Shown one piece after another: positions 3,326 to 60,251 of a DNA stretch of 64,000 nucleotides. Source of the stretch: a phage; the NCBI GenBank assembly GCA_033648345.1, contig GCA_033648345.1_4121.1; one strand, given 5' to 3'. The notes under the pieces are model-generated. The model saw nothing but the letters and a program-made list of their open reading frames with translations. It was not told the origin of the DNA and made no database searches. Made by a program: the position numbers and the translations under genes. How positions within the stretch are numbered: position 1 is the stretch's first letter; each line of letters begins with the position of its first letter.

Positions 3326-3436
3326 TTTGACTTTGGGACAACCATTTCATACGTGATATAATCTTAAGTGTCTGTAGAAATAAACAGCACATGAAGTATA
3401 AATATTAAAGTAATTTATCTCTTTAAGGAGTATGAA

Positions 3437-3820
3437 ATGGTTGATAAATGGAATAAGAAAGAACCATCGCATGATGTGGATATTTCTGGAATTGATAATG
3501 CACATAAGCATAAGTATCTTGATTCACTAGGTCTACTAAAGCCTGACCAAAGTCTTGCACATGAACGCCCATCCCGCGAAAAAGCTTTCAGTCTAGAATC
3601 TCTAGGTCATGAATTGAATCGTGTGTTTGAAGATCATCCAATTTATGTACGTGATATCATTGAGAAACTTAAAGTAACTCCTAAAGAGCACTTCAAGGCA
3701 ACAGTTCACGCAGCATTCCGTGCACTACATGAAGCACTAAAGAAAACTCATAACCTTCGTAAGATTCATGATGATATCGTGAACTCCATTGAAGGCGAAA
3801 AACATAAGTTTAAAAAATAA
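3437..3820 (+). CDS. hypothetical protein (127 aa)
   Basis: ORF with AAGGAG SD. Confidence 0.65.
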   Translation: MVDKWNKKEPSHDVDISGIDNAHKHKYLDSLGLLKPDQSLAHERPSREKAFSLESLGHELNRVFEDHPIYVRDIIEKLKVTPKEHFKATVHAAFRALHEALKKTHNLRKIHDDIVNSIEGEKHKFKK

Positions 3821-3826
3821 TTAAAA

Positions 3827-3860
3827 GGGGTTGACTTCGGTCAGCCCTTTGTCGTATAAT
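3827..3860 (+). promoter_or_regulatory. terminator-hairpin/promoter composite (PeSL-like)
   Basis: GGGGTTGAC-TTCG-GTCAGCCC hairpin, T-rich, TATAAT 3855-3860. Confidence 0.6.
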
Positions 3861-3906
3861 ATTTTCATTGCTAGAACATAAACCAACTGAGGTAATCATA
3901 TCAAAC

Positions 3907-4164
3907 ATGGCAGAAACATTATCACTATATGCATTAGTACTGTTATTTGTCGGATTTCTTCCCGCACTTATTACAGCCATTCGTGTTGTTAAACATGAAG
4001 CTGCGTTGATTGTATGTAGTATTGGGGCGAACATTCTATTGTATTTCTTTTTAACAAATACTATTGTACTGTTTGCTTTCTTTATCATGATTCTGTGGGT
4101 ACTTGTAATTCTCGGATTCTTCATTTGGTCATTGGTTGATCCTAAGAAAAAACAGGAGAAGTGA
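3907..4164 (+). CDS. small membrane protein (85 aa)
   Basis: Hydrophobic ORF; track start 3868 (TTG) lies at the predicted transcript start so ATG 3907 chosen. Confidence 0.5.
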   Translation: MAETLSLYALVLLFVGFLPALITAIRVVKHEAALIVCSIGANILLYFFLTNTIVLFAFFIMILWVLVILGFFIWSLVDPKKKQEK

Positions 4165-4165
4165 A

Positions 4166-4462
4166 ATGAAATTAATTATTGTAATGATGATGTGTTTGGT
4201 TTTCCCAGTACTGGCTACTCCTAATCTGGACTGCACACTGATGCGTTCAGATGGTGACACACTTGAAATCAACACATATGAACTCTTTGGTCCAAGTGTA
4301 GTGGAGAATGAAACCACCTACAATTTCAAAGCTATTGACTTTGAAGGTAATGTTCCAGTACTAACTACAATGACTATTGACAAAACTACTTTACTCGGAC
4401 GAATCACCACACAACGCGGAGAAAGTAAAACATTCACAGCGAAAGCTGACTGTAACTACTAA
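4166..4462 (+). CDS. secreted protein (98 aa), signal peptide
   Basis: AGGAGA SD then ATG 4166; N-terminus MKLIIVMMMCLVFPVLA. Confidence 0.6.
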   Translation: MKLIIVMMMCLVFPVLATPNLDCTLMRSDGDTLEINTYELFGPSVVENETTYNFKAIDFEGNVPVLTTMTIDKTTLLGRITTQRGESKTFTAKADCNY

Positions 4463-4483
4463 TGGTATAGTACAGTGAAAATA

Positions 4484-4514
4484 GGGTTGACTTCGGTCAA
4501 CCTTTATATATAAT
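4484..4514 (+). promoter_or_regulatory. terminator-hairpin/promoter composite (PeSL-like)
   Basis: GGGTTGAC-TTCG-GTCAACC hairpin; TATAAT 4509-4514. Confidence 0.6.
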
Positions 4515-4527
4515 GGAAGAAATAAAC

Positions 4528-5055
4528 ATGGAACGTTGGAAATTAATTCCTGATTATGACTATTCAATTTCTGATCATGGAAGAGTAAGAAACGAACAAA
4601 CTGGATATATAAGTTGTGGATTTAAAAATAAAGATGGGTATGTGAAGGTCGATTTGTATCGCAATTCTGTGAAAAATAGAAAGGCGATTCATCGACTAGT
4701 AGCTGAAGCATTTTTACCACCACCCACACAGAAACAGTTACAGTGGGCGAGTAGAACAAAGAAAAAAGTTGTTCACATAAACCATAAAGATTGTAATAGA
4801 AGTAACAATCACTATTTGAATTTGGAATGGAGCACAGCATCTGAAAACGTACTATATTCTTATTCACATGGTAACGCAACAACTAATCGTGGTGCTGCTG
4901 TGTTGACATGGGAAATTGTAAGAGAAATAAGAAAAGATTATAATGATAATTATAATGATGTGATAGAATATGCACGAGAAAATTGTAATAAATACCGTGT
5001 ATGTAAAAAAACAATACGTCGTATTTTATACAATCAAACATGGATAGAGGATTAA
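4528..5055 (+). CDS. HNH homing endonuclease (NUMOD4-like N-terminus + HNH)
   Basis: WKLIPDYDYSISDHGRVRN motif, then AIHRLVAEAF...HINHKDCNRSNNHYLNLEW HNH motif; ATG 4513 is inside the -10 box so 4528 used. Confidence 0.8.
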   Translation: MERWKLIPDYDYSISDHGRVRNEQTGYISCGFKNKDGYVKVDLYRNSVKNRKAIHRLVAEAFLPPPTQKQLQWASRTKKKVVHINHKDCNRSNNHYLNLEWSTASENVLYSYSHGNATTNRGAAVLTWEIVREIRKDYNDNYNDVIEYARENCNKYRVCKKTIRRILYNQTWIED

Positions 5056-5059
5056 AAAT

Positions 5060-6553
5060 ATGCCACAAGATAATGGGGATATGAAACATCGTAATGGTGG
5101 ACTAGTACAACACTCGGATAAATGGGCCGACCGAAATCGTCGCAAAAATAGTTATCAAGCAGGACAAGGTTCACGTGGTTCCAGAAACCAAGGAACGGGA
5201 CTTGCTGGTAAGGCAAACGCAGAAGCAGGTGAAGTTAAGAGTACTGAGAACATGACTGAGCTAGAAAAGCTACGTTATGTTAACTCATTAGGTCTTCTTA
5301 ACGCAACACAGAAACAACGCCTTGCTGATATGGAACGTGCTGAGAAAGAACAAGCAGTTCCTAAAGAAGAACCAAAACCAGAAGCTCCTAAAGCAGCTAA
5401 CCCTGTTAAAGAGTTATCTGATAACTTAGGTAAGATCTTTGCTAACAAACCACAGTTGATTCAGGGTATTGTCAAAGCACTACAGGCAGTTCCTAAAGAA
5501 GAACTCAAAGGTAAAGCACAAGCTGTACTTGATGCAATGAAAGGTAATAAGAGCACTGAACCCACTGAAGTATTCAGTACTATCATGCGTGCACTTGAAG
5601 GTACACACAAAGAAGATTCCAAAGAACCTGAACAGGGTGAAGCAAGTCTTGATGGTATTCTTAAAACTTTTGATAGTATTGGTAAAGCAGACCGTGCTAA
5701 TGCCCAGCAAGTCAAGAATGTACTGGCTAAACTTGAAAACCGTTTAGAAGGTAAAGATGATAAGGTTAAGCTCGTATCAGATGCAGTTAACAGTGCACTT
5801 AAATCTTATGTACAAGGTGAGAAAAGTCGCTTCGTAACAGCTATGGATGCTGCATTCAACACTATGAAAAAGTATGAAGCAGAACATGGTGAGAAAGTGA
5901 CACCTGATGGATATCTACTACGTAAAGATGAAGAAGGTGCAGTTGAACAGAAAGATGTTGAGCCTGAGCAAGAAGATCTACCTGATACCGTTGATATGGA
6001 TGGATACATTCATCGTCCTGAGATGGAAGAGTTTGGGTCAGATAAAGAAGGTTTTGAACATGCAATGGCAGTATATAAAGCATTAGTTAAAAATCCAGAT
6101 TATGCTAACCGTTTTGTTGACGAGTTTGATAGTGCATGGAATAACTACAAAGAGAAAGGTTATGATTTCCCTGCTGAAGCTGCATTCTTTGAACTTGGTA
6201 AACTATTAGCTAAACATGGAATTGACGTTGGTTCATCTGATTCCGAAGGTATGGAAGAAGAACATCTTGAAATGACCGATAAATCAATTCATGAACTTCA
6301 AAAGCTAATGATGTGGATATCCGAGATTGGTAAAAAAGCAGGTGCTGATAGTAAAAGTATCAACAAAAACATTAGTTGGATTAAAGATAATGTTGGTAAC
6401 AATGCTCGTAAACTACAAAAGGCGTGGGCTGATTTAGTAAATGGTGCAGATGATGTTGACATTGAATCACCAGAAGCATATGAGTATGCACTAACTACGC
6501 TCGATAACTCATTCAAAGAGTACGACCGTGGTGTTGGAAAAGATAAAAAATAA
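5060..6553 (+). CDS. acidic Lys/Glu/Ala-rich protein (497 aa), probable coiled coil
   Basis: Long ORF with GAGGA SD; low-complexity charged composition. Confidence 0.7.
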   Translation: MPQDNGDMKHRNGGLVQHSDKWADRNRRKNSYQAGQGSRGSRNQGTGLAGKANAEAGEVKSTENMTELEKLRYVNSLGLLNATQKQRLADMERAEKEQAVPKEEPKPEAPKAANPVKELSDNLGKIFANKPQLIQGIVKALQAVPKEELKGKAQAVLDAMKGNKSTEPTEVFSTIMRALEGTHKEDSKEPEQGEASLDGILKTFDSIGKADRANAQQVKNVLAKLENRLEGKDDKVKLVSDAVNSALKSYVQGEKSRFVTAMDAAFNTMKKYEAEHGEKVTPDGYLLRKDEEGAVEQKDVEPEQEDLPDTVDMDGYIHRPEMEEFGSDKEGFEHAMAVYKALVKNPDYANRFVDEFDSAWNNYKEKGYDFPAEAAFFELGKLLAKHGIDVGSSDSEGMEEEHLEMTDKSIHELQKLMMWISEIGKKAGADSKSINKNISWIKDNVGNNARKLQKAWADLVNGADDVDIESPEAYEYALTTLDNSFKEYDRGVGKDKK

Positions 6554-6563
6554 ACATTTAAAA

Positions 6564-6600
6564 GGTTGACTTCGGTCAACCTTTTTTTGTAAATATTGTA
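6564..6600 (+). promoter_or_regulatory. terminator-hairpin/promoter composite (PeSL-like)
   Basis: GGTTGAC-TTCG-GTCAACC hairpin + TTTTTTT, weak -10 TAAATA. Confidence 0.55.
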
Positions 6601-15868: not shown

Positions 15869-16993
15869 TTAATTATCTAAGCCACCAATTACACTGAACT
15901 GTGTGGTAACGTCTGAATTATTATCTATGTAAGTTCTTCTACCAACATAATATAGTTGTCCTTTAGCTTGAATAAAAGTTACGGTCCCTGTATTGAATGT
16001 TATAATATCATTGTATGTAATGTCAGGTGGTAGTGCTGCTGATAACGCAGTAACTTTACTTAATGCAGCACTAGCACTACCATTTATACCAGCAGCAATA
16101 CTACCAGTACCATAGAACTTATTATCTTTACCAATGAATACGTTGGCTGATGCTTGTGTAGCTGATGTTATTGCCTTACCAATTTGGAATGCGGTTCCTA
16201 TGGTGTATGGTGTGCTCCTGGCAGCGTCTATGCTTTGTGTATATCCATCCCCTAGCTGACCATTAACTTTGTCACCACATGAGTATAGAGTACCATTGTG
16301 GCTGTATATGATCCCACGGTTAGAGAAGCTAACAGCTTCTGCATTAGTCCATACTGGTGCGGTGTATGAGTTTACACGACTAGCGGTAGTTCCTAGACCT
16401 AGTATACCATATGTGTTATCACCACATCCAAACCATTGTCCAGAACTGTTTTGATAGAACACTGAACGTTCTGTTGATTCCATGCGTACAGCATCCACAG
16501 CACCACTTTTAACGAACGAAGTTGATGAGGATGTAGTACCAGTACCCAATGCACCATAAGTGTTTGTACCAATCGCATATATTGATCCTAGTGGTGTCAT
16601 AACACGTATGCAGTTATATCCCAATTGAACTTTACATTCAAATAGGTTGTCCCATATTTCAGGAACAGCAGAAAATAAATTTGTAATTTCGAACCATGAT
16701 GTTGTCGAACCAGTTAATCCTATACTGCTTTTGTTTCCTAAAATGAAAACAGTTTTGTCCTTCTTAATTATCCATGATGATAGGAAACCTATCTCACAGC
16801 TATGAACATTTGATTCTATTTGGGTAATATAATACTTAACTGTGTTATCACCCATGAATGCCGCAGCACCGGATGCAAAAAGGTTTCCAGTTTGTTTATT
16901 TAAAATGTAGTTATTGTTTCCATATACACTAACATCATAAGAACTTTCTTGTTTTTCGTTCCCATAATCAAATAACAATACGAAAGGTAACAT
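15869..16993 (-). CDS. RCC1-like beta-propeller repeat protein, array member 15 (374 aa)
   Basis: Starts MLPFVLLFDYGN; repeated […YxxGxNxxGxLGxG] blade-type motifs. Confidence 0.75.
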   Translation of the reverse strand: MLPFVLLFDYGNEKQESSYDVSVYGNNNYILNKQTGNLFASGAAAFMGDNTVKYYITQIESNVHSCEIGFLSSWIIKKDKTVFILGNKSSIGLTGSTTSWFEITNLFSAVPEIWDNLFECKVQLGYNCIRVMTPLGSIYAIGTNTYGALGTGTTSSSTSFVKSGAVDAVRMESTERSVFYQNSSGQWFGCGDNTYGILGLGTTASRVNSYTAPVWTNAEAVSFSNRGIIYSHNGTLYSCGDKVNGQLGDGYTQSIDAARSTPYTIGTAFQIGKAITSATQASANVFIGKDNKFYGTGSIAAGINGSASAALSKVTALSAALPPDITYNDIITFNTGTVTFIQAKGQLYYVGRRTYIDNNSDVTTQFSVIGGLDN

Positions 16994-17070
16994 GATAAAA
17001 TCTCCTTGTGTTATACTTTATTTAATCATTTTATAATGTACAATTTTACAGCGATTTAATTGAGGTACTC

Positions 17071-17721
17071 ATGAATAAAAGAAGTAAGTTCTATCAAGAA
17101 TATTTCACTAAACAGAAACGATTCACAAAAAAATACTTTACATCATCCCACCGACCAGTTGCAAGTTACAAACGTCCTAATACTAACTATCTTACTGGTG
17201 GCAAGTTTAGTGCAAAGTTCGAATTACTTATGCGTGAAAAGAATATCAAGATGCATTACGCAGAGACGAGAAAAAACTCATCAATTATTTGTTCTGATTT
17301 TCTTGAGTACGGTTGCTTAACTTATAAATTCAATGATGTATATTTGTATATTGATGTTGATTGTAACAGTACTCTTATGTTTGAGATTTCAATTCACCCA
17401 AATCACAACCGTTATATAAACATTAACTTGATTGATAAAGTACTGATTGGTATATCTAGTACTGATGGTGGTGGATTTGAATTTATTGCTTCAAAATATG
17501 ATGAAGATTTCGTACTTTACCCAGTACTTGATGATGTGAAAGATATACTCAATTCATTAAAAGGAAGTCAATACAAATTATCTGAAGAACAGCTATTTCA
17601 GTACTCACTTATTCATGATGATATCGAGATATACTTAGAGTGTGCGAGAATATTGGAGTATCTTTATAATGAACTAACAACAACTGGTAAAGTGACAGCA
17701 TTCACATTATATAATATGTAA
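17071..17721 (+). CDS. hypothetical protein (216 aa), opposite strand inside the array
   Basis: ORF with GAGGT SD; flanked by the array's hairpin terminator. Confidence 0.6.
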   Translation: MNKRSKFYQEYFTKQKRFTKKYFTSSHRPVASYKRPNTNYLTGGKFSAKFELLMREKNIKMHYAETRKNSSIICSDFLEYGCLTYKFNDVYLYIDVDCNSTLMFEISIHPNHNRYININLIDKVLIGISSTDGGGFEFIASKYDEDFVLYPVLDDVKDILNSLKGSQYKLSEEQLFQYSLIHDDIEIYLECARILEYLYNELTTTGKVTAFTLYNM

Positions 17722-17728
17722 AAGAAAA

Positions 17729-17752
17729 GCCAGTACATAGTACTGGCATTAT
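17729..17752. terminator. hairpin terminator (array type)
   Basis: GCCAGTAC-ATAG-TACTGGC hairpin with flanking A/T tracts. Confidence 0.5.
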
Positions 17753-17753
17753 A

Positions 17754-18890
17754 TTAAACTGGTGGAGAATTATATGGCTCAAATTTATAAGTTGTCGTAG
17801 CAGTACCAGCAATGGCGTTGTTAGCTAGTATGTACATAGTCCTGTAGTCGATTACCACTACAGTAATACTACCACCAAAAGCATAGTCTGTTATGTTATT
17901 AGTGTTGAATGGTAAATTAGATGAACTGGTCCATGTATTAGCTGTTGTGCTATTTGTACCATTGGAATAACCTACACTAGATGCACCAGTTGTCCATAAG
18001 TTTCCATCATTGAACAAGGAGACATGGTTAGTTGTATATGATTTATTAGGTATAGAACTATCAATTGGTGTATTCCAAACTTTAGTAACCCATGTTGTAA
18101 CTGCTGTATTATTAGTAACGCCATTACCTAATGAACCATTTATTGGTATACCTCTTATATAAGAAGTGTTAGTACTAGGGTCAACATATCCAAATGTATA
18201 TGTATCAAATGCAAATTGAAAACAATCAGAACTCGGTAATGTGTACAGTAATGTATATGAAGACGTGTTTATTGATGAATTTGTACCGTTCACGCCTTGG
18301 TATAAAATACCACTAGCCAATATTTGATTATTATTTTTTGTTATAGTGTTCATTGATGGATATGTTTTCACATCACGCACATCATTAGTCACATATGTTT
18401 GTGTTGATAATGCAACGTTACTACCATTACCTATAACCCCTGTATTTGCACCACTCCCATAAAGTGAACCATCATTCAAAAGAACCATTGTAACATTACC
18501 ATTTCCCGTAATTGTTTTAATATTACTAACATCCACCGCAGCAAATACAGTTGATGTTAAATCAGTGAAACGTGTATAATGTGATGTTGTGCCATTGATT
18601 GGTGTCGCAAAACCAGAATACAATATTCTATTTTCTTTGGTAATAAGGAATGTTCCAGTAACACCATTTGAATGGATATCAACAATATTATCTCCCATTA
18701 ATACCCAATCACTTACGAATGTTGTTGTACCAGTACCTAACCCATGTGTAGTGTTGTAACCACGTCCATACACTCTACCATCACTGAGTAATGTTACCAC
18801 ACATTGACCACCACCACCAAGGATAACTTTTTGGATAGTACTCTTTACTTTTATATTCCCGTACTTAACCATTCTTGCAAAAGGTAACAT
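17754..18890 (-). CDS. RCC1-like beta-propeller repeat protein, array member 14 (378 aa)
   Basis: Starts MLPFARMVKYGN; RCC1-type motifs e.g. YGRGYNTTHGLGTG. Confidence 0.75.
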   Translation of the reverse strand: MLPFARMVKYGNIKVKSTIQKVILGGGGQCVVTLLSDGRVYGRGYNTTHGLGTGTTTFVSDWVLMGDNIVDIHSNGVTGTFLITKENRILYSGFATPINGTTSHYTRFTDLTSTVFAAVDVSNIKTITGNGNVTMVLLNDGSLYGSGANTGVIGNGSNVALSTQTYVTNDVRDVKTYPSMNTITKNNNQILASGILYQGVNGTNSSINTSSYTLLYTLPSSDCFQFAFDTYTFGYVDPSTNTSYIRGIPINGSLGNGVTNNTAVTTWVTKVWNTPIDSSIPNKSYTTNHVSLFNDGNLWTTGASSVGYSNGTNSTTANTWTSSSNLPFNTNNITDYAFGGSITVVVIDYRTMYILANNAIAGTATTTYKFEPYNSPPV

Positions 18891-50375: not shown

Positions 50376-50510
50376 ATGAATCCTAACGGTTTAATTTACA
50401 GTACTCCTAAAACGAAAGCAGATAAAGCGAAAGCACGTAAAGCGAAAGTAAAGGAGTACATTAAGCAAGGCATGACGCGAAAGGCGGCAGTACTGAAAGC
50501 TAAAAAATAA
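50376..50510 (+). CDS. Lys-rich small protein (44 aa)
   Basis: ATG immediately after previous stop (TAAATG). Confidence 0.35.
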   Translation: MNPNGLIYSTPKTKADKAKARKAKVKEYIKQGMTRKAAVLKAKK

Positions 50511-50520
50511 ATGAAAAAAG

Positions 50521-50554
50521 TGGTTGACTTCGGTCAGCCATTTTGCTATTATAT
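50521..50554 (+). promoter_or_regulatory. terminator-hairpin/promoter composite (PeSL-like)
   Basis: GGTTGAC-TTCG-GTCAGCC hairpin + TTTTGCTATTATAT. Confidence 0.6.
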
Positions 50555-50555
50555 A

Positions 50556-50606
50556 TTCATTGAGAGATAGCTCACTAGCCCACCGGGTGCATAAGTGTAT
50601 CTATTA
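50556..50606 (+). ncRNA. candidate small RNA/leader (element E) downstream of PeSL
   Basis: TTCATTGAGAGATAGCTCACTAGCCCACCGGGTGCATAAGTGTATCTATTATAT. Confidence 0.3.
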
Positions 50607-50724
50607 TATAAGTATTGAGTACTGAAAACTATTTTTAAAAAGTACTTGCAAACTATCTCAATAAGCGTATAATGTTTTACATCGAAAGGGGAAACGGTTT
50701 CCCCTGGTAATAAGGAAACAAATC

Positions 50725-51066
50725 ATGACTATTGCAATTGCTCAATCTAACTTTGAAAATGAAATCATCGCCCAGGCACTGCGTTTAAATGATGGTCGGG
50801 CCGAAATTAATTACGGTTTCAATTCAGGCGGTTGTGAAAAATATCAGTACTTTGTAACTGCTGATGGCGGTGTCCTGGGCATCAATACCGTTATTGTAAA
50901 CATTCAGAAAATTAATTTCAATGATCCAGACGATAGCCAGTTTTACATTGTAGGCGTAGACGTGAACTATGAGGATGACTCACTAACTGATGATCACACT
51001 GGCGAGCGGTTAGAAAGTGCATACGGTGAAGATGATTATCAGTCCGGTCCAGAAGATTTCGAATAA
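50725..51066 (+). CDS. hypothetical acidic protein (113 aa)
   Basis: Promoter + GGGGAAACGGTTTCCCC hairpin + AAGGAAA SD. Confidence 0.65.
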   Translation: MTIAIAQSNFENEIIAQALRLNDGRAEINYGFNSGGCEKYQYFVTADGGVLGINTVIVNIQKINFNDPDDSQFYIVGVDVNYEDDSLTDDHTGERLESAYGEDDYQSGPEDFE

Positions 51067-51157
51067 TATAAAAAATAGTTTGACAATAGATTATAGTACT
51101 GTATAATTAATTACATCAAGGGGAGAATAGTTCTCCCCAACTAAGAGGAAAAAGAAA

Positions 51158-51340
51158 ATGGCTGAATTAATCGCTCGGAATACAATTGCAGGCGTTGAAG
51201 ATGTAACATTATCATATGATTCAGATAAACAAGTTTACGTCGTTCGTTATGGTCTGATTGGTGTTAACGTTGATTATATTGATGAAGCCTTTGAAAAATA
51301 CTTTGAATTTATTAATATGGCTTATAATGATTATCGTTAA
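51158..51340 (+). CDS. hypothetical protein (60 aa)
   Basis: Promoter TTGACA…TATAAT + hairpin + AGAGGA SD. Confidence 0.6.
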   Translation: MAELIARNTIAGVEDVTLSYDSDKQVYVVRYGLIGVNVDYIDEAFEKYFEFINMAYNDYR

Positions 51341-51430
51341 AAAATAGTTTGACAATAGATTATAGTACTGTATAATAGTTTACATCAAGGGGAGAAAAAC
51401 TTCTCCCCACTAACAGAGAGAGAAAACAAA

Positions 51431-51643
51431 ATGGCTAATATCTGCACTGTACTGAAAAATGCAAAACAAGTTTTATTTTCTGATCACGATCATTTAAACA
51501 AGGATATTACGGGCGTTCGGAATATCAAAGATGTAAAAAGTGTTATGGGTATCTATTGCAATATGAAACGTGTCGGCACGTTCGGCGATAAAGTACTATA
51601 CCAGGCAGGGGATTATAACTTCACATTAACCATCATCAATTAA
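51431..51643 (+). CDS. hypothetical protein (70 aa)
   Basis: Near-duplicate of the promoter upstream of 51158. Confidence 0.6.
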   Translation: MANICTVLKNAKQVLFSDHDHLNKDITGVRNIKDVKSVMGIYCNMKRVGTFGDKVLYQAGDYNFTLTIIN

Positions 51644-51733
51644 AATATATTACCAGTACTATTGACAACGTTTGATAGTACTGTATAATAAGTTTTATAA
51701 ACAGTAGTTAACTTAACCTAAGAGAGAAACAAA

Positions 51734-51877
51734 ATGATCGCACTGGATTCATTCATCGACGCAGTACTGGCAAAAACTGGCGAGGATCTGACCGCAGAAC
51801 AATACGCGATGATCGAGCAATGTCAGCAAAACGGTAAATCGGTGAAAGATACTGTTAAGATTATCCGCAAGATGTAA
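51734..51877 (+). CDS. hypothetical small protein (47 aa)
   Basis: Below track threshold; promoter TTGACA…TATAAT + AGAGAGA SD. Confidence 0.45.
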   Translation: MIALDSFIDAVLAKTGEDLTAEQYAMIEQCQQNGKSVKDTVKIIRKM

Positions 51878-51886
51878 TATTATAGC

Positions 51887-51912
51887 CCACTGGTTAACGC
51901 TGGTGGGCTTTA
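51887..51912 (+). terminator. hairpin terminator containing a Chi octamer
   Basis: AGCCCACTGG-TTAAC-GCTGGTGGGCT hairpin; weak U-tract. Confidence 0.45.
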
Positions 51913-51982
51913 ATCATTTACCCTATACAATGCCAGTACTCAACCGTTTATCTCGTTAGAATGCGTTACAGGACGTTTGACA

Positions 51983-52180
51983 ATGATTAGCATGAAATCA
52001 GTACAAAAACAAATAGAAACATTATCAAAAATTAAACGTAAACAATACTCCTTAGAATATACAATCAATGGTAACTATCATCTAATGAAAGAAAATAATT
52101 TTATAGTCATTGATGAATCATTGCAAATTATTAGTATAGTACTGAAAGCATTAATCAATGACAGAAAAAAATTAAAATAA
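51983..52180 (+). CDS. hypothetical protein (65 aa)
   Basis: ORF; start uncertain (ATG 51983 or 51992). Confidence 0.45.
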   Translation: MISMKSVQKQIETLSKIKRKQYSLEYTINGNYHLMKENNFIVIDESLQIISIVLKALINDRKKLK

Positions 52181-52183
52181 TTG

Positions 52184-52212
52184 TTGACATACAATGCCAG
52201 TACTGGCATAAT
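52184..52212 (+). promoter_or_regulatory. sigma70-type promoter driving element E copy
   Basis: TTGACA 52184-52189, 17-nt spacer with AGTACTG, CATAAT 52207-52212. Confidence 0.55.
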
Positions 52213-52217
52213 ACTTA

Positions 52218-52266
52218 CATCAAGACGAGAACGTCACTAACCCATAGGGTGCACAAATGTAACTAT
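52218..52266 (+). ncRNA. candidate small RNA/leader (element E)
   Basis: CATCAAGACGAGAACGTCACTAACCCATAGGGTGCACAAATGTAACTAT; no ORF. Confidence 0.3.
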
Positions 52267-52508
52267 ATAATATCGATCAATAAATGATCAAAAAAGTACT
52301 GGATCAATTTAGCATAAGGAGTATAATTCTGATCAATTCTTGATCAAAGGCAATATACGCAGTTGAATTTATATAGACAGTACAAAGGCGTTACTATCCG
52401 TGGTAATGCTGGTGGATATGTAGTATCATATGGTTTGAATAAGATTAGCACTAGTAGTATTATTGTAGCATTACAGTACTATAGTATTTTTATAATGAGG
52501 TTAAAATA

Positions 52509-52766
52509 ATGGCTGTTGGATTCGCGAAGGACGGGGCCGAGCAAGACGAGATTAACGCAGTGATTCAGGCCGCTGTAAACCACGCTAGAAAGCAAATTAA
52601 CGCACAAAGAGAATCACTGGTACATTGCCTCGACTGCGGCGATAAAATCCCTGAGAATCGACGCCAGGCCGTTATAGGGTGCATGTATTGTATTACTTGC
52701 CAGGAGGATCATGATAGTACTTTTAAAAGAGATCCGCGTAATTGTTGGCATAGATCTATGAGATAA
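52509..52766 (+). CDS. TraR/DksA-type C4 zinc-finger protein (85 aa)
   Basis: CLDCGDKIPENRRQA…CMYCITC four-cysteine motif. Confidence 0.7.
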   Translation: MAVGFAKDGAEQDEINAVIQAAVNHARKQINAQRESLVHCLDCGDKIPENRRQAVIGCMYCITCQEDHDSTFKRDPRNCWHRSMR

Positions 52767-52830
52767 AAAGTAATTGACAGTACTGAAAGATAGTGTATAA
52801 TGTTTTATATCTTAACTGAGGATTGAAATC

Positions 52831-53187
52831 ATGGGTATTCAACACATCACGCGTACTACTGACAATGGCGAGATCACTGGTTATCAGGTACAGGGCAAAG
52901 TAGCACAATTGCAGTACTGGTTTGTTAAACGTGGAATCATTGCACCGGATCTTGATTATGACCGTGTAGCGTTTATTGATTCTCTTTATGTTGATCCTGA
53001 TAGTCGGGGCAATGGTGAAGGTAACGAATTAATGAATGCCTTTATTGATGCCGCCGATGATTCAGATTGTATCATCTTAGAATGCGATACGGGAGAAGAT
53101 AACGCCTTTAATCTTAAAGAATGGTACGAAGGCTTCGGATTCGAGGTATTGATAGATAGTGAATATCCTATCATGATTTTATCATAG
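52831..53187 (+). CDS. possible GNAT-family acetyltransferase (118 aa)
   Basis: IDSLYVDPDSRGNGEGNELMNAFID resembles acetyl-CoA binding motif A; assignment tentative. Confidence 0.45.
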   Translation: MGIQHITRTTDNGEITGYQVQGKVAQLQYWFVKRGIIAPDLDYDRVAFIDSLYVDPDSRGNGEGNELMNAFIDAADDSDCIILECDTGEDNAFNLKEWYEGFGFEVLIDSEYPIMILS

Positions 53188-53266
53188 TACTTGCATTTAG
53201 TTTTCAGTACTGTTATAGTACTTGCATCAAGGGGAAACATCTTCCCCTACTAAGAGGAAATAAAAA

Positions 53267-53455
53267 ATGGAAAACTTATCAAGTATTTTAGTACAAGATG
53301 ATTTCGGTAATCCTGGAAGTGCTATCATTGTTCGGGGCAATAAAGCAACGTTTGTTATTGCTGGTGGACCCGTACAGCGTAGCATTAAAAATAATGCTGT
53401 TACCATTAATAATGTACGCTATCGCTTAGATAAAGAATTAATTCATAAACTGTAA
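53267..53455 (+). CDS. hypothetical protein (62 aa)
   Basis: Promoter + hairpin + AGAGGA SD. Confidence 0.6.
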   Translation: MENLSSILVQDDFGNPGSAIIVRGNKATFVIAGGPVQRSIKNNAVTINNVRYRLDKELIHKL

Positions 53456-53482
53456 TATTAATTTAATAGAGGATAACAATAA

Positions 53483-53806
53483 ATGTACATTCATACTACT
53501 ATCACAAAGGAAGTCCGTTGCCAGTTCGAAAGTATTCCGGGCGTATGTTTCATCACTGGTACGTTTTCCCCTGGTGATCGTGATAATCCAGTACTGTTAC
53601 AATTACGCCATCCATCATGGGATAAAGCATTTGATCTACCGTTGAATGAATTCGCAACTACTGCTGAAAAGTACATTAAAAATATTCGCGAGAATGATCG
53701 ACTATTCATTAATGCTTTTAGTGATTCCGCGTTAAGCGAGATCCACGGCGTATTGGTTGCAATCATGGAATCAATGCAGAAAACTAAATTCAAACAAGGT
53801 GAATAA
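53483..53806 (+). CDS. hypothetical protein (107 aa)
   Basis: AGAGGA SD. Confidence 0.6.
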   Translation: MYIHTTITKEVRCQFESIPGVCFITGTFSPGDRDNPVLLQLRHPSWDKAFDLPLNEFATTAEKYIKNIRENDRLFINAFSDSALSEIHGVLVAIMESMQKTKFKQGE

Positions 53807-53889
53807 AAACTATTGACAATGCAATCCAGTACTGTATAATAGTTTACATGAAGGGGAGAAATGATTCTCCCCACTAAGAGGAAAGAAAA

Positions 53890-54102
53890 ATGCAAGGTCA
53901 ACTAATCGTTCGTAAATGGTCTGATACTAACGAAAAACCGTGGGATGTACAATACATCGCCCCAAATGGTGAATCCAGATATCAACCAGGTGTAACGCAT
54001 AGTACTGAGCAATTCGCCGCCGCTCATCGCGAACGTCTGTTACAATCAATGCAGCAAGGTTCCGGTGAAAAATTCATTCAGGATCATTGGCTGAAAGATT
54101 AA
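53890..54102 (+). CDS. hypothetical protein (70 aa)
   Basis: Promoter + GGGGAGAAATGATTCTCCCC hairpin + AGAGGA SD. Confidence 0.6.
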   Translation: MQGQLIVRKWSDTNEKPWDVQYIAPNGESRYQPGVTHSTEQFAAAHRERLLQSMQQGSGEKFIQDHWLKD

Positions 54103-54188
54103 AAAGTACTTGCACTGTACTGAATAAAGTGTATAATGTTTTATATCGGAAGGGGAATAGTTCCCCTCCGAACAAAGAGGAAAGTATA

Positions 54189-54362
54189 ATGGTCCAGGTA
54201 GAATTAACAGTACTGAAAGATCTGTTTTATCGGATTGGTACTACTGGCGAATATCCGAAGGGTGATAATGCAAAACTTTACGTATCACTCGACTTATGGC
54301 AACGCGAACAATTAGCAACGGCCTGGCGTAAAGGCAAAGCAGATCGAGAGGTGAAAGCATGA
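54189..54362 (+). CDS. hypothetical small protein (57 aa)
   Basis: Promoter + GGAAGGGGAATAGTTCCCCTCC hairpin + AGAGGA SD; track start 54087 is in the promoter. Confidence 0.55.
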   Translation: MVQVELTVLKDLFYRIGTTGEYPKGDNAKLYVSLDLWQREQLATAWRKGKADREVKA

Positions 54363-54508
54363 AAGAATTCTTATTTGAAGTAGTGTTTCAAGGTGTCGGC
54401 AATAACCAACTGATTCGATCAAGTGGTTATAATGTTAACCAGGCATGGAATAACATTAAACAAATGTACCCGAACGCTATCACATATCGCAACCCGAAAG
54501 AAGTTTAA
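54359..54508 (+). CDS. hypothetical small protein (49 aa)
   Basis: ATGA overlap with previous stop. Confidence 0.4.
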   Translation: MKEFLFEVVFQGVGNNQLIRSSGYNVNQAWNNIKQMYPNAITYRNPKEV

Positions 54509-54522
54509 AAATAATTGAAAAA

Positions 54523-54558
54523 GGGATTGACTCCGGTCAGTCCCTTTGCTATTATATA
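54523..54558 (+). promoter_or_regulatory. terminator-hairpin/promoter composite (PeSL-like)
   Basis: GGGATTGAC-TCCG-GTCAGTCCC hairpin + TTTGCTATTATATA. Confidence 0.6.
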
Positions 54559-54603
54559 CGCATAGAAACAAATTAGCCCACCGGGTGCATAAATGTATCT
54601 ATT
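54559..54603 (+). ncRNA. candidate small RNA/leader (element E) downstream of PeSL
   Basis: …AATTAGCCCACCGGGTGCATAAATGTATCTATTG followed by a Chi octamer at 54608. Confidence 0.3.
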
Positions 54604-54690
54604 GTTTGCTGGTGGCTAGTACTATCAAGTACTGAAAACTATTTTTAAAAAGTACTTGCAAAGTATCACGATAAGCGTATAATGTTTTAC

Positions 54691-54770
54691 ATCAGGACGG
54701 GGAACGAAACAAGTAACCCCGTTAAGTAGTCCAGGAGTAAGACATACGAAAAACTCCCCTGATAAAATAG
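54691..54770 (+). ncRNA. conserved non-coding leader between tandem promoters (element L)
   Basis: Near-identical to 43731-43810. Confidence 0.35.
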
Positions 54771-54832
54771 TTTGACAATAGAAAGTAAACGAGTATAATA
54801 CTTACATCAACCACTGATAAGGAAACATTAAA

Positions 54833-55108
54833 ATGCGGATTCTACTGACAGCTAACGAAATCGAACAAGTACTGACTACTAACCTGGAAGACTGGAAACG
54901 TGAAGCAGATATCCAGGCGGTTCAATGGCTTAACGATAAGTTAACGCCGGATGACTTAAGCAAGATTGTAGATCCTCAATTCTACGAAGATATTCACGAC
55001 ACCGCGTTAAGCGTCGAGGATGTACTTGATAAGCACTACATTGATACTGATTTACATGTTTACGGTCGTAAAAACTTTATCACTATTCACGACATTTACA
55101 ATACTTAA
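54833..55108 (+). CDS. hypothetical protein (91 aa)
   Basis: AAGGAAA SD. Confidence 0.6.
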   Translation: MRILLTANEIEQVLTTNLEDWKREADIQAVQWLNDKLTPDDLSKIVDPQFYEDIHDTALSVEDVLDKHYIDTDLHVYGRKNFITIHDIYNT

Positions 55109-55196
55109 GTATTGACAAAGTATCTTAGTACTGTATAATAGTTTACATCAAGTGAGGGGAAACGGTTCCCCTCCTAACAAAGAGAGAGAAATAAAA

Positions 55197-55379
55197 ATGG
55201 CTAAGTGCACTATCTGCAAGAAAGAAATAGTATTAGTTCCAAGTGCCCGTGAACGTGCCGCTCGGTTTGGTGGCAAAGCGTCAGACTATACAAAAATGTT
55301 TACTGCCCATACAGCTTGCCAGGTAGCAAAACGTTCACAAGAAAGCGTAGAATTAATGCGTAAACTTTCCAAAAAATAA
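55197..55379 (+). CDS. small Cys-containing protein (60 aa)
   Basis: Promoter TTGACA…TATAAT + GAGGGGAAACGGTTCCCCTC hairpin; MAKCTICKK…HTAC. Confidence 0.55.
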   Translation: MAKCTICKKEIVLVPSARERAARFGGKASDYTKMFTAHTACQVAKRSQESVELMRKLSKK

Positions 55380-55465
55380 GTATTGACAAAGTATCTTAGT
55401 ACTGTATAATAGTTTACATCAAGTGAGGGGAAACGGTTCCCCTCCTAACAGAGAGAGAAATAAAA

Positions 55466-55789
55466 ATGGCTATGATCCTTACCCAGAAAGTGGAATTGAA
55501 AATTGTAACCTCCTTTGACATTAAAGTTAATCGGTGGACTGATTCACACGGCAATACTTACCACTCTTGCTACGTGTCTGCGTTAATTGGCGACCGCTGG
55601 GAAGACCTGGGACACGAAACCTTTACATACGGTTACGGTACGCAAGGCGAATACACTGGTTTGGAGATCATTAAAGAAACCGTTATAGGTTTCAACCCGA
55701 AAGAAAAAGTTATTCACCGCATCGAAAAAGAGATTAACAAAGAAATAACAGTTCGCTACTACGATGTAAAACGTAAGAAAGACATGTAA
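55466..55789 (+). CDS. hypothetical protein (107 aa), paralogue of 48606-48950
   Basis: Exact duplicate of the promoter module upstream of 55197. Confidence 0.65.
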   Translation: MAMILTQKVELKIVTSFDIKVNRWTDSHGNTYHSCYVSALIGDRWEDLGHETFTYGYGTQGEYTGLEIIKETVIGFNPKEKVIHRIEKEINKEITVRYYDVKRKKDM

Positions 55790-55884
55790 TAGAATCCATT
55801 TAAAGTACTATTTGACATTGCCCAGATAGTACTTTATAATAGACTCTAACTTGTAGTACTAACTCAACTAATAGGATGTATACC

Positions 55885-56280
55885 ATGATTACTAAATTCT
55901 ACGCTACCCGTGAAGCTGCCCGTATTGTTGCACGCGAGGAAGGAGCAGCATTTAAAGACATGGGAACGACAGCACCGAAAGGTCAACGCTGGGCCGTACA
56001 GTTCAAAGAAATCTCTGATATTGTGAATTCACCTGAGCCAGTACTGACAGCAGCAGAACTAAAACGAGCGGATATGCTGGCGGCAATACTTGACGCACAA
56101 GATGAGTTTATCGCTGATTCTGATATCAAAGTACAGGTAAACCACACCGCATGGACTCACGCGGATCACCTGGCAAACCTTAAGCGTCCAAGTGAACTGA
56201 TTCGCAACCAGAAAGAGATCCGACATGATCGTAAGGGTAATCGTGTAACAGTATACAGTAAACGCCGCCAGGTTATCTAA
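55885..56280 (+). CDS. hypothetical protein (131 aa), paralogue of 42862-43128
   Basis: Promoter TTGACA…TATAAT; AGGATG SD then ATG 55885. Confidence 0.6.
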   Translation: MITKFYATREAARIVAREEGAAFKDMGTTAPKGQRWAVQFKEISDIVNSPEPVLTAAELKRADMLAAILDAQDEFIADSDIKVQVNHTAWTHADHLANLKRPSELIRNQKEIRHDRKGNRVTVYSKRRQVI

Positions 56281-56302
56281 TAACTTGCAGTACTAACAAC
56301 AC

Positions 56303-56328
56303 GGCGGGATCAGTTCCCGCCTTTTTTA
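56303..56328 (+). terminator. rho-independent terminator
   Basis: GGCGGGATCAGTTCCCGCC hairpin + TTTTTT. Confidence 0.7.
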
Positions 56329-56341
56329 TAGGACAAACAAA

Positions 56342-56596
56342 ATGATTAAGGTTCAACTATATAAAGATAACATCTTACGGGTACACTATAAAGCACCGAA
56401 GAGAATCATCACAAAGGCCGTACAGCTTGCTAATGAGTTTATTAATGGTAACCTATTACCGAGGAAGTTAAGCAACGGGAAACTGCGTGTAATCGACGTG
56501 GACACTAACAACAGGATAGTAATCGAGAACACAGGAAAGATAAACCTTTATGAGCATCAACAATACAATAAGAAAATAAAACTAATATCACGTTGA
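56342..56596 (+). CDS. hypothetical protein (84 aa)
   Basis: ORF, weak SD. Confidence 0.5.
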   Translation: MIKVQLYKDNILRVHYKAPKRIITKAVQLANEFINGNLLPRKLSNGKLRVIDVDTNNRIVIENTGKINLYEHQQYNKKIKLISR

Positions 56597-56649
56597 CAGT
56601 ACTCAATTGTTTTAGTATTATGTACACATACCAACACGGGAGAAACAAA

Positions 56650-56868
56650 ATGAAATTATCTAAAATCGAAAAGAAAACTATTGATGAAGCAGTTAAGCAC
56701 GGTTATACCTTTCGTAATGATTCACATTTTACCAATTATCAACAAGGGTATCGTACTATTAAAAAACTTATTGACAAAGGTTTATTAGTTGAAGTCAATA
56801 ACGGCAATGGCATTGAGTATCAACCAACACAGGACGCATTTTATTTTAAGAAATATAATATTATCTAA
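56650..56868 (+). CDS. hypothetical protein (72 aa)
   Basis: Promoter TTGACAGTACTCAA…; GGGAGA SD then ATG 56650. Confidence 0.55.
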   Translation: MKLSKIEKKTIDEAVKHGYTFRNDSHFTNYQQGYRTIKKLIDKGLLVEVNNGNGIEYQPTQDAFYFKKYNII

Positions 56869-56926
56869 TTGACAGTACTCAAATGTTTTAGTACTATATG
56901 TACATACCAACACGGGGGAAAACAAA

Positions 56927-57169
56927 ATGATTACTTTAGAAAAACGTATCAAAGAAACTACATCGCTGGTGGAATTGTTAACAGTACTCAAATGTAAAAC
57001 AACACCATTCAGCACGCCGGACTTTATTAATATGGTTGATGTTAACGGTCGTTATCGCATTGCAGTAGAACATGGAACAGCGAAAGTATTCAGTACTAAA
57101 AACACTAAGGAAGTGATTCACGCGGTTAGTGTGAAAAAAGTGGTTGCCATTGATAGTAAAGTACTGTAA
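56927..57169 (+). CDS. hypothetical protein (80 aa)
   Basis: Near-duplicate of the promoter upstream of 56650. Confidence 0.6.
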   Translation: MITLEKRIKETTSLVELLTVLKCKTTPFSTPDFINMVDVNGRYRIAVEHGTAKVFSTKNTKEVIHAVSVKKVVAIDSKVL

Positions 57170-57200
57170 TATAGTTTCATTAACTCAAGGAGTAAATGCA

Positions 57201-57785
57201 ATGCGTAATTATACTAAATTCATCCGTACACTGTCAGAAATGGAAACCAACAAAGAGATCCTTTCAGCTTGTCGGTTAGCTGGCCTGGAGATCATCGGTG
57301 CTGGTTCTTCCCGTATAGTATTCGCTTTAAATGATCGGTTAGTGATTAAGGTCGCGAATTGTGATGCGGGTGTAGAACAAAATGAAACTGAATGTAAGGT
57401 ATGGAATTTTTTAGACTATGACCGCCCTCAGTTGAAACAGTACTTTGCAAAGGTGCATATGCATTTATGCGATCCTGATAATATGTTTATCGTTATGGAT
57501 CGGTTGAGTACTGCAAGCAAAGGCAGTGTGAAGCACGTTAACGCGTGCAATGAATTAAAGTACAATATTAAACGTAATGCAATCGAACGCCAGCACCGCT
57601 TTGCTGATGCACTACAACACGTTGATGATACATTATCAACACTAACGATAAGAGATATCAGAAAACAGAATATCGGCCAGGATCGTAATGGCCTTATTAA
57701 AGTACTTGATTACGGTTTAACCAGCAATATCTGGAATCAGTACTATAAAAAGCGTGATGTGGCAGCAAGTAAAGTAACACGATAA
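57201..57785 (+). CDS. protein-kinase-like protein (194 aa)
   Basis: AAGGAG SD; GAGSSRIVF (Gly-rich loop), VIKV, IRDIRKQNIG (catalytic-loop-like), KVLDYG (DFG-like) in kinase order. Confidence 0.55.
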   Translation: MRNYTKFIRTLSEMETNKEILSACRLAGLEIIGAGSSRIVFALNDRLVIKVANCDAGVEQNETECKVWNFLDYDRPQLKQYFAKVHMHLCDPDNMFIVMDRLSTASKGSVKHVNACNELKYNIKRNAIERQHRFADALQHVDDTLSTLTIRDIRKQNIGQDRNGLIKVLDYGLTSNIWNQYYKKRDVAASKVTR

Positions 57786-57800
57786 AAAAAGATTAAAAAA

Positions 57801-57836
57801 GGGATTGACTCCGGTCAGTCCCTTTGCTATTATATA
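57801..57836 (+). promoter_or_regulatory. terminator-hairpin/promoter composite (PeSL-like)
   Basis: GGGATTGAC-TCCG-GTCAGTCCC hairpin + TTTGCTATTATATA. Confidence 0.6.
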
Positions 57837-57892
57837 TTCATTGAGAGATAACTCACTGACCCATAGGGTGCGGAAGTGTATCTATTATATAA
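57837..57892 (+). ncRNA. candidate small RNA/leader (element E) downstream of PeSL
   Basis: TTCATTGAGAGATAACTCACTGACCCATAGGGTGCGGAAGTGTATCTATTATAT. Confidence 0.3.
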
Positions 57893-58008
57893 GCATTCAG
57901 TACTGAAAACTATTTTAAAAAAGTACTTGCATTGTACTTAGAATCAAGTATAATGTTTTATATCGAGAGGGGGAAATGGTTCTCCCTGGTACATTAAGGA
58001 ATAAAATC

Positions 58009-58416
58009 ATGACTACTACTAATCAAGCTCGGTCCATCGCCAACGATAAAAATCATGCTGCAATGGTCGCTGGTTACATTGAAGCTATGCAATTCAGTAC
58101 TGTACACAATGAGAACGGCGAATACCTGGAAGATTATGAATTATCAGAGCAAGCCCATCAAGCGGCAGTGATTGCATGTTCACGTTTCCTTGCTGTACAT
58201 GGTGAAGATATGGAAACAGTACAAAAACACCATAATCCTGATTATACTTATAGTCATGCAGGTCATGATCTCTTTCTTACTCGCGAAGGTCACGGCACTG
58301 GTTTTTGGGATCGTGATATCGGTCACTATGATGATATATTCACTAAGTACTGCGAAGAAATCAACGTTTGCGATCCCTATGTAGGCGATGATAATCTAAT
58401 CTATATGGGCGAATAA
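58009..58416 (+). CDS. hypothetical protein (135 aa)
   Basis: Promoter + GGGGGAAATGGTTCTCCC hairpin + AAGGAA SD; track start 57976 is in the hairpin. Confidence 0.6.
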   Translation: MTTTNQARSIANDKNHAAMVAGYIEAMQFSTVHNENGEYLEDYELSEQAHQAAVIACSRFLAVHGEDMETVQKHHNPDYTYSHAGHDLFLTREGHGTGFWDRDIGHYDDIFTKYCEEINVCDPYVGDDNLIYMGE

Positions 58417-58504
58417 AAGTATTTGACAAAGTATATCAGTACTGTATAATAGTTTACATCAAGGGGAGAATAGTTCTCCCCCACCAATAAAAGGAAACAA
58501 AATT

Positions 58505-58777
58505 ATGTCCAGCTACTCCGCTACTATGATCATTAAAGATATGAACGGTAATCCTACTTCTGCTGGTGGATCATTTGGAAACATTAATTTAGATGGTCGG
58601 TTATCCATGCAATCAGCCATCGATGCAGCGAAAGAAGTTTTTAAGAATGAATGTACTGTAAGTAAGCTGGATTATATGGGATTCGCTATCGAAAAAACTA
58701 ATCGTTTTGTGAACTACAAAAATCCACTGATGATCGATACTAACCTGAAAGCAAACGAAGTGGGGTACTTATTATGA
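58505..58777 (+). CDS. hypothetical protein (90 aa)
   Basis: Promoter TTGACA…TATAAT + hairpin + AAGGAA SD. Confidence 0.6.
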   Translation: MSSYSATMIIKDMNGNPTSAGGSFGNINLDGRLSMQSAIDAAKEVFKNECTVSKLDYMGFAIEKTNRFVNYKNPLMIDTNLKANEVGYLL

Positions 58778-58965
58778 CAGTTGAAGAAGTTAAAAAAGTA
58801 CTGGCAGTACTACGCTATCATAATCATTGCAAGGTGAAGAATGATCCTGATTATCTCGATTCATCCCTGGAAGAGGATACACTACAAGCAATAAGCCATA
58901 TGCAAAAAATGCTTAAGCGTATGACCGAAAAGAATAGGCCGGACTATATCGGAAATAAAATTTAA
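58774..58965 (+). CDS. hypothetical protein (63 aa)
   Basis: ATGA overlap with previous stop. Confidence 0.55.
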   Translation: MTVEEVKKVLAVLRYHNHCKVKNDPDYLDSSLEEDTLQAISHMQKMLKRMTEKNRPDYIGNKI

Positions 58966-59052
58966 AAAGTACTTGCATTGTAGTTAGATTAACGTATAAT
59001 GTTTTATATCGAGAGGGGGAAATGGTTTCCCCTCAAGTCCAGGAGATACACC

Positions 59053-59316
59053 ATGAACACTATCGAAATCACTATCAATGCACACGTATACGACAACGTA
59101 GTACTGCAAACTACTATGACCGCTAATGATACCAGTACTTTGCGGAATACTGTTATTAGTGCCGTATGTGCTGCAATCGGTGATGTATCCCTGGAAAATG
59201 CAGAACATATCAACAACGGTTTCACTATGTGCAAGCGTGATAACGCAAAACATATCATCGTGGAAGGTTACGGCGGTGTAGAATTTAATGTTTATATGAA
59301 AAAAGTACTTGCATAA
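59053..59316 (+). CDS. hypothetical protein (87 aa)
   Basis: Promoter + hairpin + AGGAGA SD then ATG 59053. Confidence 0.6.
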   Translation: MNTIEITINAHVYDNVVLQTTMTANDTSTLRNTVISAVCAAIGDVSLENAEHINNGFTMCKRDNAKHIIVEGYGGVEFNVYMKKVLA

Positions 59317-59383
59317 TAACTAAAACAAAGTATAATGTTTTGCATAGGGGGAGATATCCTCCCCCACTAAAAGGAGTAATAAA

Positions 59384-59608: not shown

Positions 59609-59684
59609 AAGTTTTATTTCAGTACTATTGACATAGCTTGATAGTACTGATGTAATAACTTTACTAACTACAAGGGGAAACATA

Positions 59685-60233: not shown

Positions 60234-60251
60234 CAAAAAAAGAATAAAAAA

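Follow-up and report, generated by a model that had tools for sequence, protein, structure and literature searches.

The locus considered here raises the question of whether an HNH gene that stands directly behind a terminator/promoter cassette in a phage genome is a mobile homing endonuclease and, if it is, how it is accommodated beside the virion gene that follows it. The stretch of DNA that was analysed, referred to below as the window, is 64,000 nucleotides long, and the matches of its bases 3400–6600 identify its source as an Asteriusvirus (121Q/PBECO4-like) jumbo coliphage. Across these bases Escherichia phage EC.P1 is 98.2% identical over 99% of the length, while many Asteriusvirus records show 84–98% identity over just 41–80% of it. 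No tRNA, intron or other Rfam family was found in the whole 64-kb window, and a tblastn search for paralogous HNH genes elsewhere in the window returned none at E < 0.5. We put at roughly four in five the probability that the + strand at positions 4528–5055 encodes a functional HNH homing endonuclease of the I-HmuI type as a free-standing gene, a reading drawn from sequence comparison and structural modelling in which cleavage and homing are putative activities.

The open reading frame list places the start of the gene at 4513, giving a frame of 4513–5055. This start was rejected and the biological start assigned to the ATG at 4528, because, counted from there, the NUMOD4 match sets in at residue 2, because all homologs begin with ME.W at the equivalent position, and because ATG 4513 overlaps the −10 box of the upstream promoter. 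The gene so defined encodes 175 amino acids and forms its own reading frame between two genes, its stop and the downstream start being 4 nt apart. Both of the motifs named in the original prediction, NUMOD4-like and HNH, are recovered as Pfam domains above their gathering cutoffs (NUMOD4, E=3.8e-7, 30.7 bits against 23.4; HNH_3, E=3.9e-8, 33.3 bits against 24.8), and the protein matches the PHROG 59 HNH endonuclease family at 1.5e-36. Its N-terminus is formed by the NUMOD4 beta module; the catalytic motif of HNH_3 (INHKDCNRSNNHYLNLEWSTASEN), of the beta-beta-alpha-metal type, comes next, and three helices make up the C-terminal domain. Residues N85, H86, N93, N94 and N98, together with an EN motif, are invariant in 8 homologs and align to the I-HmuI motif DHKDGNKDNN...N.

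The relationship to I-HmuI holds at the level of profile and fold. A profile of the protein and seven homologs gave a single match among PDB sequences, to I-HmuI (1U3E), at E=4.6e-21. The AlphaFold model has a mean pLDDT of 85.9, with the strands of the NUMOD4 module at residues 4–53 modelled at pLDDT > 90, and in Foldseek 1U3E is both the top match (E=5.7e-8, probability 1.0, TM 0.56 in both directions) and the only one with E < 0.001. Comparison with an 84% homolog gives a dN/dS of 0.087 at dS ~1.1, and the reading frame is therefore kept by selection and is no decaying remnant. The clade linked to the downstream structural gene also has an insertion of ~12 residues (PTQKQLQWASRTKKK) between NUMOD4 and the HNH motif, at HNH residues ~68–82 (window 4730–4775), with a predicted helix at residues 68–75; this insertion is missing from I-HmuI and from homologs of 37–44% identity.

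Comparison with relatives agrees with the free-standing, putatively mobile insertion that the original prediction had proposed: the gene is not conserved at this position in all of them, and empty-site alleles are the rule. Among the 1,428 phage records of the phage collection that have any HNH match, EC.P1 alone exceeds 60% identity and is the sole carrier of the window gene, at 99.4%, the next best local match being 41.5%. Phages vB_Ec-M-J, 121Q, JNE01 and G17 and ~30 other records lack the gene at a flank identity of 97–98%, and in ~30 related Asteriusvirus records the alignment does not begin until window position 5111, which defines the empty site. IMG/VR held no close relative of the gene, its best match being partial at 45% identity. 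Copies that are 99% identical occur on at least 24 public contigs, and 10 of the 10 contexts shown place them in the same slot, on two backbones, the structural gene encoding 497 amino acids in one and 419 in the other.

The two edges of the insertion differ in character. To the left, vB_Ec-M-J matches the window with 0 mismatches over 4242–4505, after which divergence is complete, so that the junction at 4505/4506 is sharp and has no left tract; it lies 3 nt past the stem of the cassette hairpin, within the U-tract of HNH-less alleles. The match to vB_Ec-M-J and 121Q breaks off at 4505 and is picked up again at 5111, where codon 18 of the structural gene lies; the spacer diverges completely between the HNH+ and HNH-less alleles. 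The first 17 codons of the structural gene (5060–5110, + strand) read MPQDNGDMKHRNGGLVQ in the window allele and MPGQFTDKNGGNMAG in HNH-less alleles, with a 6-nt indel and differences from vB_Ec-M-J in 33 of 50 alignment columns. To the right of them lies a co-conversion-like tract (5111–5203, + strand) in which raised divergence decays to identity: mismatches to vB_Ec-M-J per 50 columns run 9, 11 and 2, then ~0 for more than 1 kb, the decay downstream of HNH spanning ~150 bp. The endpoint of the tract varies among carriers with the 497-aa backbone, falling at 5146–5152 in one locus (L048), at 5179–5182 in EC.P1 and two further loci (L042, L043), and at 5203–5212 in the window and L046. Double-strand-break repair after homing gives rise to co-conversion tracts that vary in this way (PMC2988022). 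The diverged 17-codon variant is linked to all HNH copies of at least 84% identity, and positions 5060–5110 are a candidate region for target-site immunity. The structural-gene N-terminus of TH47, MPSDYNNGDMKHRNGAIVQHS, also resembles the HNH-linked variant of the window.

The gene that follows HNH, at 5060–6553 on the + strand, encodes a virion structural protein of 497 amino acids (PHROG 20398, 2.5e-236), annotated as structural in 121Q (gp201), vB_Ec-M-J and others, and is the likely target gene of the endonuclease. HNH homologs at 84% (L031), 59% (L035), 57% (L032–34) and 54% (L038–40) identity adjoin orthologs of this gene, lying 1–11 nt upstream of them; the orthologs are 88% (L031), 43% (L035) and 60% (L032–34) identical to the 497-aa protein, and in L038–40 the N-terminus is recognisable. 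The cassette hairpin is found upstream of HNH in L031 and L032 and is missing in L035 and L038, so that HNH has been tied to the structural gene for longer, and more tightly, than to the cassette. The diverged HNH+ loci L032, L035 and L038 have an N-terminus of the HNH-less type, MPGxF.DKNG. Since these loci keep a “sensitive-type” N-terminal peptide, it is not possible to name the N-terminal codons as the target, and locating the cleavage site by sequence comparison is defeated in the same way; the diverged codons of the window allele may have come along as hitch-hiking donor sequence and need not underlie immunity. PHROG 16530 is matched both by the 127-aa gene at 3437–3820 and by the 497-aa protein, to whose N-terminal part (5060–5600) that gene is paralogous.

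The cassette at the left edge was described in the original prediction as a PeSL-like terminator and promoter behind which HNH had inserted, with the gene starting 14 nt after the −10 box. The spacing agrees, with 13 nt between TATAAT and ATG 4528, and the insertion does adjoin the cassette, although the division between resident and inserted sequence can now be drawn more finely. The terminator-like hairpin AGGGUUGAC-UUCG-GUCAACCUU (4483–4504, + strand), recognised by its fold, its repeat family and the annotation of G17, has a 9-bp stem, a UUCG loop and a folding energy of −12.1 kcal/mol (z=−3.9); the authors of the G17 genome, using ARNOLD, marked the equivalent hairpins of that phage as terminators. 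A sigma70-like promoter, TTGACT-N16-TATAAT (4487–4514, + strand), matches the consensus at 11 of 12 positions, with its −35 element (TTGACT, 4487–4492) inside the 5′ arm of the hairpin, a 16-nt spacer, and its −10 element (TATAAT) at 4509–4514. The hairpin is found in HNH+ and HNH-less alleles alike and, as there is no mismatch to vB_Ec-M-J over 4242–4505, it is resident and lies outside the mobile unit. The −35 element is thus resident as well, and the HNH-linked part of the cassette comprises only TATAAT and the sequence 3′ of 4505.

How HNH is expressed can be framed from these elements, and the gene is probably transcribed early. One route would be read-through of the hairpin, whose U-tract, UUUUCUUU in HNH-less alleles, is shortened by the insertion to UUUAUAUA. 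The other would be transcription from TTGACT-N16-TATAAT, which would begin near 4521 and yield a nearly leaderless and poorly translated mRNA, its leader of ~6 nt leaving out the GGAAG at 4515–4519, so that its translation would call for initiation of the leaderless type. The TATAAT of the window is not kept in the L031 (84%) or L032 (57%) loci and, because it is unconserved and would give a ~6-nt leader without a Shine-Dalgarno sequence, its role in HNH expression is doubtful. An RNA structure sequestering the ribosome binding site at the HNH start, of the type seen in I-TevI, segB and mobE, was considered and rejected, the 70-nt leader and start region scoring z=+0.77 against shuffles; no leader structure is conserved in L031, L035 and L038, and a local hairpin occurs in L032 only.

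The cassette belongs to a family of repeats. Its hairpin core, GGTTGACTTCGGTCAACC, has 8 copies within 3 mismatches in the window, all on the + strand, where 0.04 would be expected, and a looser pattern gives 12 cassette copies with the consensus aaaGGGTTGACTTCGGTCAGCCCTTTTTGcTATAATcATTTCATC. These fold at −12 to −18 kcal/mol and match the promoter consensus at 10–12 of 12 positions. In canonical copies the spacer is N18 and the −10 is of the extended TGn form, whereas the spacer of the HNH-adjacent copy is N16. The family resembles the PeSL of T4-type phages in being a repeated composite of sigma70 promoter and terminator hairpin that is dense among small ORFan genes and may likewise mark indel boundaries. 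In a PeSL, however, the stem-loop is followed by an AT-rich tract and then by the −35 and −10 elements (PMC2839356), whereas in the window cassettes the −35 TTGAC lies within the stem; PeSL stems are of the form GGGG...CCCC, while those of the window are GGGTTGAC/GTCA(A/G)CCC with a UUCG loop; and PeSL reside in T4-like phages, the window cassettes in an Asteriusvirus. Given this placement of the −35 and the different phage lineage, we regard the window cassettes as analogues of PeSL and not as members. The likeness of a repeated promoter and stem-loop composite thus stands, while membership of the T4-type family does not.

Within this locus, the one examined for the purpose, three junctions (3868, 4478 and 4505) coincide with cassettes. 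At 3866–3906 the window is without a 37-aa membrane ORF (121Q gp200-like) that EC.P1, vB_Ec-M-J and 121Q have, and this indel starts directly after the −10 region of the cassette at 3831–3860. Four variant cassettes (GGGATTGACTCCGGTCAGTCCC + TGCTATTAT) lie further along, at 50524, 54527, 57805 and 60256 (window 50500–60500), each followed by a conserved non-coding stretch of ~150 nt. In this stretch GCCCACCGGGTGC comes first, then another sigma70-like promoter, which has an A/T-rich tract upstream of it, and then a GC hairpin ahead of the next ORF. These ~150-nt stretches have no tRNA or Rfam match and may be a small RNA or tandem-promoter module. A distinct repeated promoter-like element, TTTTTgATTAAATATAGTATAATGAATAAAGGAGG, precedes each gene of a tandem array of ~1.15 kb paralogous genes on the minus strand (window ~16900–34900), which start with MLPF(A/V)RM... 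and are annotated in 121Q as RCC1-like “DNA condensation” proteins. In more distant phages the HNH homologs have upstream motifs of the type TGAAACG...TGTGGTATAAT (L035 1700–1772; L038 843–902) and no TTGAC hairpin; these motifs are of the promoter class that has been called “divergent RpoD-like” in CBB and GAP32.

That the locus is a recombination hotspot, as was originally proposed, is borne out by the variety of its contents as well as by the three or more endpoints of the tract. The slot between the 127-aa gene and the structural gene occurs in at least six configurations. The window has two small membrane or unknown genes and HNH; EC.P1 has the same content and the 37-aa ORF; vB_Ec-M-J has the same small genes without HNH; 121Q and G17 have the 37-aa ORF only; JNE01 has a 97-aa ORF; and TH47 and UB have proteins of 394 and 257 amino acids, respectively. 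Both of the last two match PHROG 681, “endonuclease” (7e-66 for the TH47 protein, encoded at 1501–2685 of locus L004; 1e-42 for the UB protein, at 803–1576 of L052), and that of TH47 also contains CapR and treble-clef zinc domains. One site is therefore used by two unrelated endonuclease families.

A feature missed in the original prediction may explain how the structural gene tolerates the insertion. The heptamer ATAAATA is the putative late promoter of Rak2-like phages (PMC5259590), and a copy lies within the HNH coding sequence at 4988–4994 on the + strand, 65 nt upstream of the structural-gene ATG. In HNH-less alleles a resident copy, TATAAATA, lies 45 nt upstream of that ATG and is removed by the insertion; all other alleles, including TH47 and UB, have exactly one ATAAATA 32–45 nt upstream of the structural gene. 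The motif is ~20-fold depleted in the window, with 2 copies on both strands of the 64 kb against 41.8 +/- 6.9 expected, and both lie upstream of virion structural genes, the second (3398–3404) being 32 nt upstream of the 127-aa structural-protein paralog. The depletion suggests strong counter-selection of the late-promoter signal across this early region. The region used for testing the motif was the structural module of phAPEC6, as 121Q 105–155 kb is early-region DNA without structural genes. In this module 13 of 15 ATAAATA copies are intergenic, in sense orientation and 16–64 nt upstream of genes, that of the major head protein among them; against this range the 65 nt of the embedded copy stands at the long end.

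Four diverged homologs keep the embedded motif unchanged at HNH offset 460, and in those of 84, 59 and 57% identity it occupies identical codon positions, while the 54% homolog (L038) has a single ATAAATA at another offset, 188 nt upstream. This conservation is partly explained by the overlap of the motif with the conserved [D/N]-K-Y codons of the HNH protein. The last HNH codons also contain the Shine-Dalgarno sequence of the structural gene, GAGGA (5047–5051, + strand), 8 nt upstream of ATG 5060. On the most economical reading of these motifs, the element appears to carry a putative replacement for the late promoter that it displaces.

These features can be assembled into a mechanism. In a mixed infection the enzyme would nick or cut an HNH-less genome somewhere within the ~85-nt late-promoter/5′UTR spacer or among the opening codons of the structural gene, and repair from an HNH+ genome would copy the HNH gene together with a variable ~90–150 bp of the 5′ end of the donor structural gene. 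The HNH+ allele would be protected, the target stretch being replaced or diverged. Expression of the structural gene would then be taken over by the embedded ATAAATA, 65 nt upstream, and GAGGA, a takeover that would make a clean loss of HNH costly. The complete proposal, that this HNH lineage homes into the late-promoter/5′UTR spacer of a virion gene, destroys its target, supplies the promoter itself and is in that sense “addictive”, and competes with PHROG 681 for the site, goes well beyond the identity of the gene, and we advance it tentatively, as a possible reading on which we would not yet rely.

An insertion that borders so exactly on a repeated cassette could also have been moved without any nuclease of its own. 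The HNH gene would then be passive cargo, shuffled in PeSL style by homologous recombination between the repeated cassettes and the structural gene. The left junction falls exactly at the cassette, and a sharp junction is equally expected from cassette-mediated recombination; other indels of the locus start right after cassettes, the 37-aa ORF after that at 3831 and a 121Q module difference between those at 3831 and 4487; the window has 12 cassette copies; and PeSL cassettes and the shuffling that they mediate are documented in T4-type phages (PMC2839356, PMC4122927; Arbiol et al. 2010; Comeau et al. 2014). The right boundary is nevertheless of another kind, lying away from any cassette and inside a coding gene as a graded tract with variable endpoints, and the linkage of HNH to the structural gene persists in L035 and L038, where this hairpin does not stand upstream. 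Strong purifying selection on the HNH ORF and the targeting of the same slot by a second endonuclease family also argue against passive cargo, and we consider it unlikely that cassette recombination is the whole explanation, although the two mechanisms are not exclusive of each other.

Purifying selection would equally be expected if the protein had been domesticated as an accessory nuclease, directed for example at host DNA or rival phages or employed in processing DNA, and were no longer mobile. Its stable position beside a virion gene across deep divergence would fit such a role, as would an embedded promoter that hinders gene loss. Yet nearly all close relatives are viable phages without the gene, its variable endpoints on near-identical backbones indicate recent transfers, and its domain architecture is that of homing enzymes of the I-HmuI type. 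We therefore regard domestication as very improbable and prefer the free-standing homing endonuclease as the description of this gene.

Should the promoter-replacing reading prove true, the 5′ end of the structural gene would be a long-lived endonuclease arena across the Rak2-like jumbo phages. The locus itself is a clean natural case of putative intronless homing in the 121Q/Rak2-like jumbo phages, which have been little studied. For experiments it offers empty sites, co-conversion tracts with several endpoints, and HNH lineages, five of them and diverged, on one target gene. ATAAATA may serve as a sharp operational marker for late promoters in these phages, and the locus, as a predictable point of mosaicism, is relevant to the comparison and engineering of therapeutic Asteriusvirus phages.

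Within this phage group, free-standing HNH genes have been reported from Rak2-like phages (CBB_420, 528 and 535; RaK2 and GAP32; fEgEco12 gp520 and gp570), one of them located where a virion structural protein gene ends (PMC5259590), and HNH genes are among the presence/absence differences of close Asteriusvirus genomes (PMC13070987). Among Asteriusvirus genome papers, that of Sharanji makes no mention of promoters or homing endonucleases, and the fEgEco12 paper lists just two presence/absence HNH genes. The Rak2-like reports differ from the present case in being at the level of annotation, and no record of the collection other than EC.P1 exceeds 60% identity to the window gene; the lineage is thus one where such homing endonucleases had so far only been annotated. 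The closest structural counterpart is I-HmuI of Bacillus phage SPO1 (1U3E), which shares the N-terminal beta-sheet NUMOD4 module, the HNH motif and a helical C-terminal DNA-binding region, and to which the predicted fold of the window protein matches over its full length. In contrast to the free-standing window gene, I-HmuI is a nicking enzyme encoded in a group I intron; it is ~22% identical to the window protein and lacks the ~12-residue insertion of the clade.

The closest parallels in arrangement are the mobA–E and segA–G genes of T4, which are likewise intergenic and free-standing, share the orientation of their neighbours, occur sporadically and show co-conversion of flanking markers. 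The T4 genes belong to another phage lineage than the Asteriusvirus, Rak2-like source of the window and bear no close sequence relationship to its HNH gene, and the RBS-sequestering hairpin of I-TevI, segB and mobE was not found at the window HNH start. Promoters serving genes downstream lie within the endonuclease ORFs of T4 segG, segA, segE, mobB and mobC (PMC2988022). In the case of segG, which lies upstream of gene 32, the promoter of an essential downstream gene resides within the endonuclease ORF (PMC2988022), an arrangement that the window HNH would, by analogy, putatively share. The conceptual gain beyond what is known from T4 is accordingly little: judged by its sequence features, the HNH element appears to be a free-standing homing endonuclease of the T4 seg/mob kind with an embedded promoter, a type already known from that phage.
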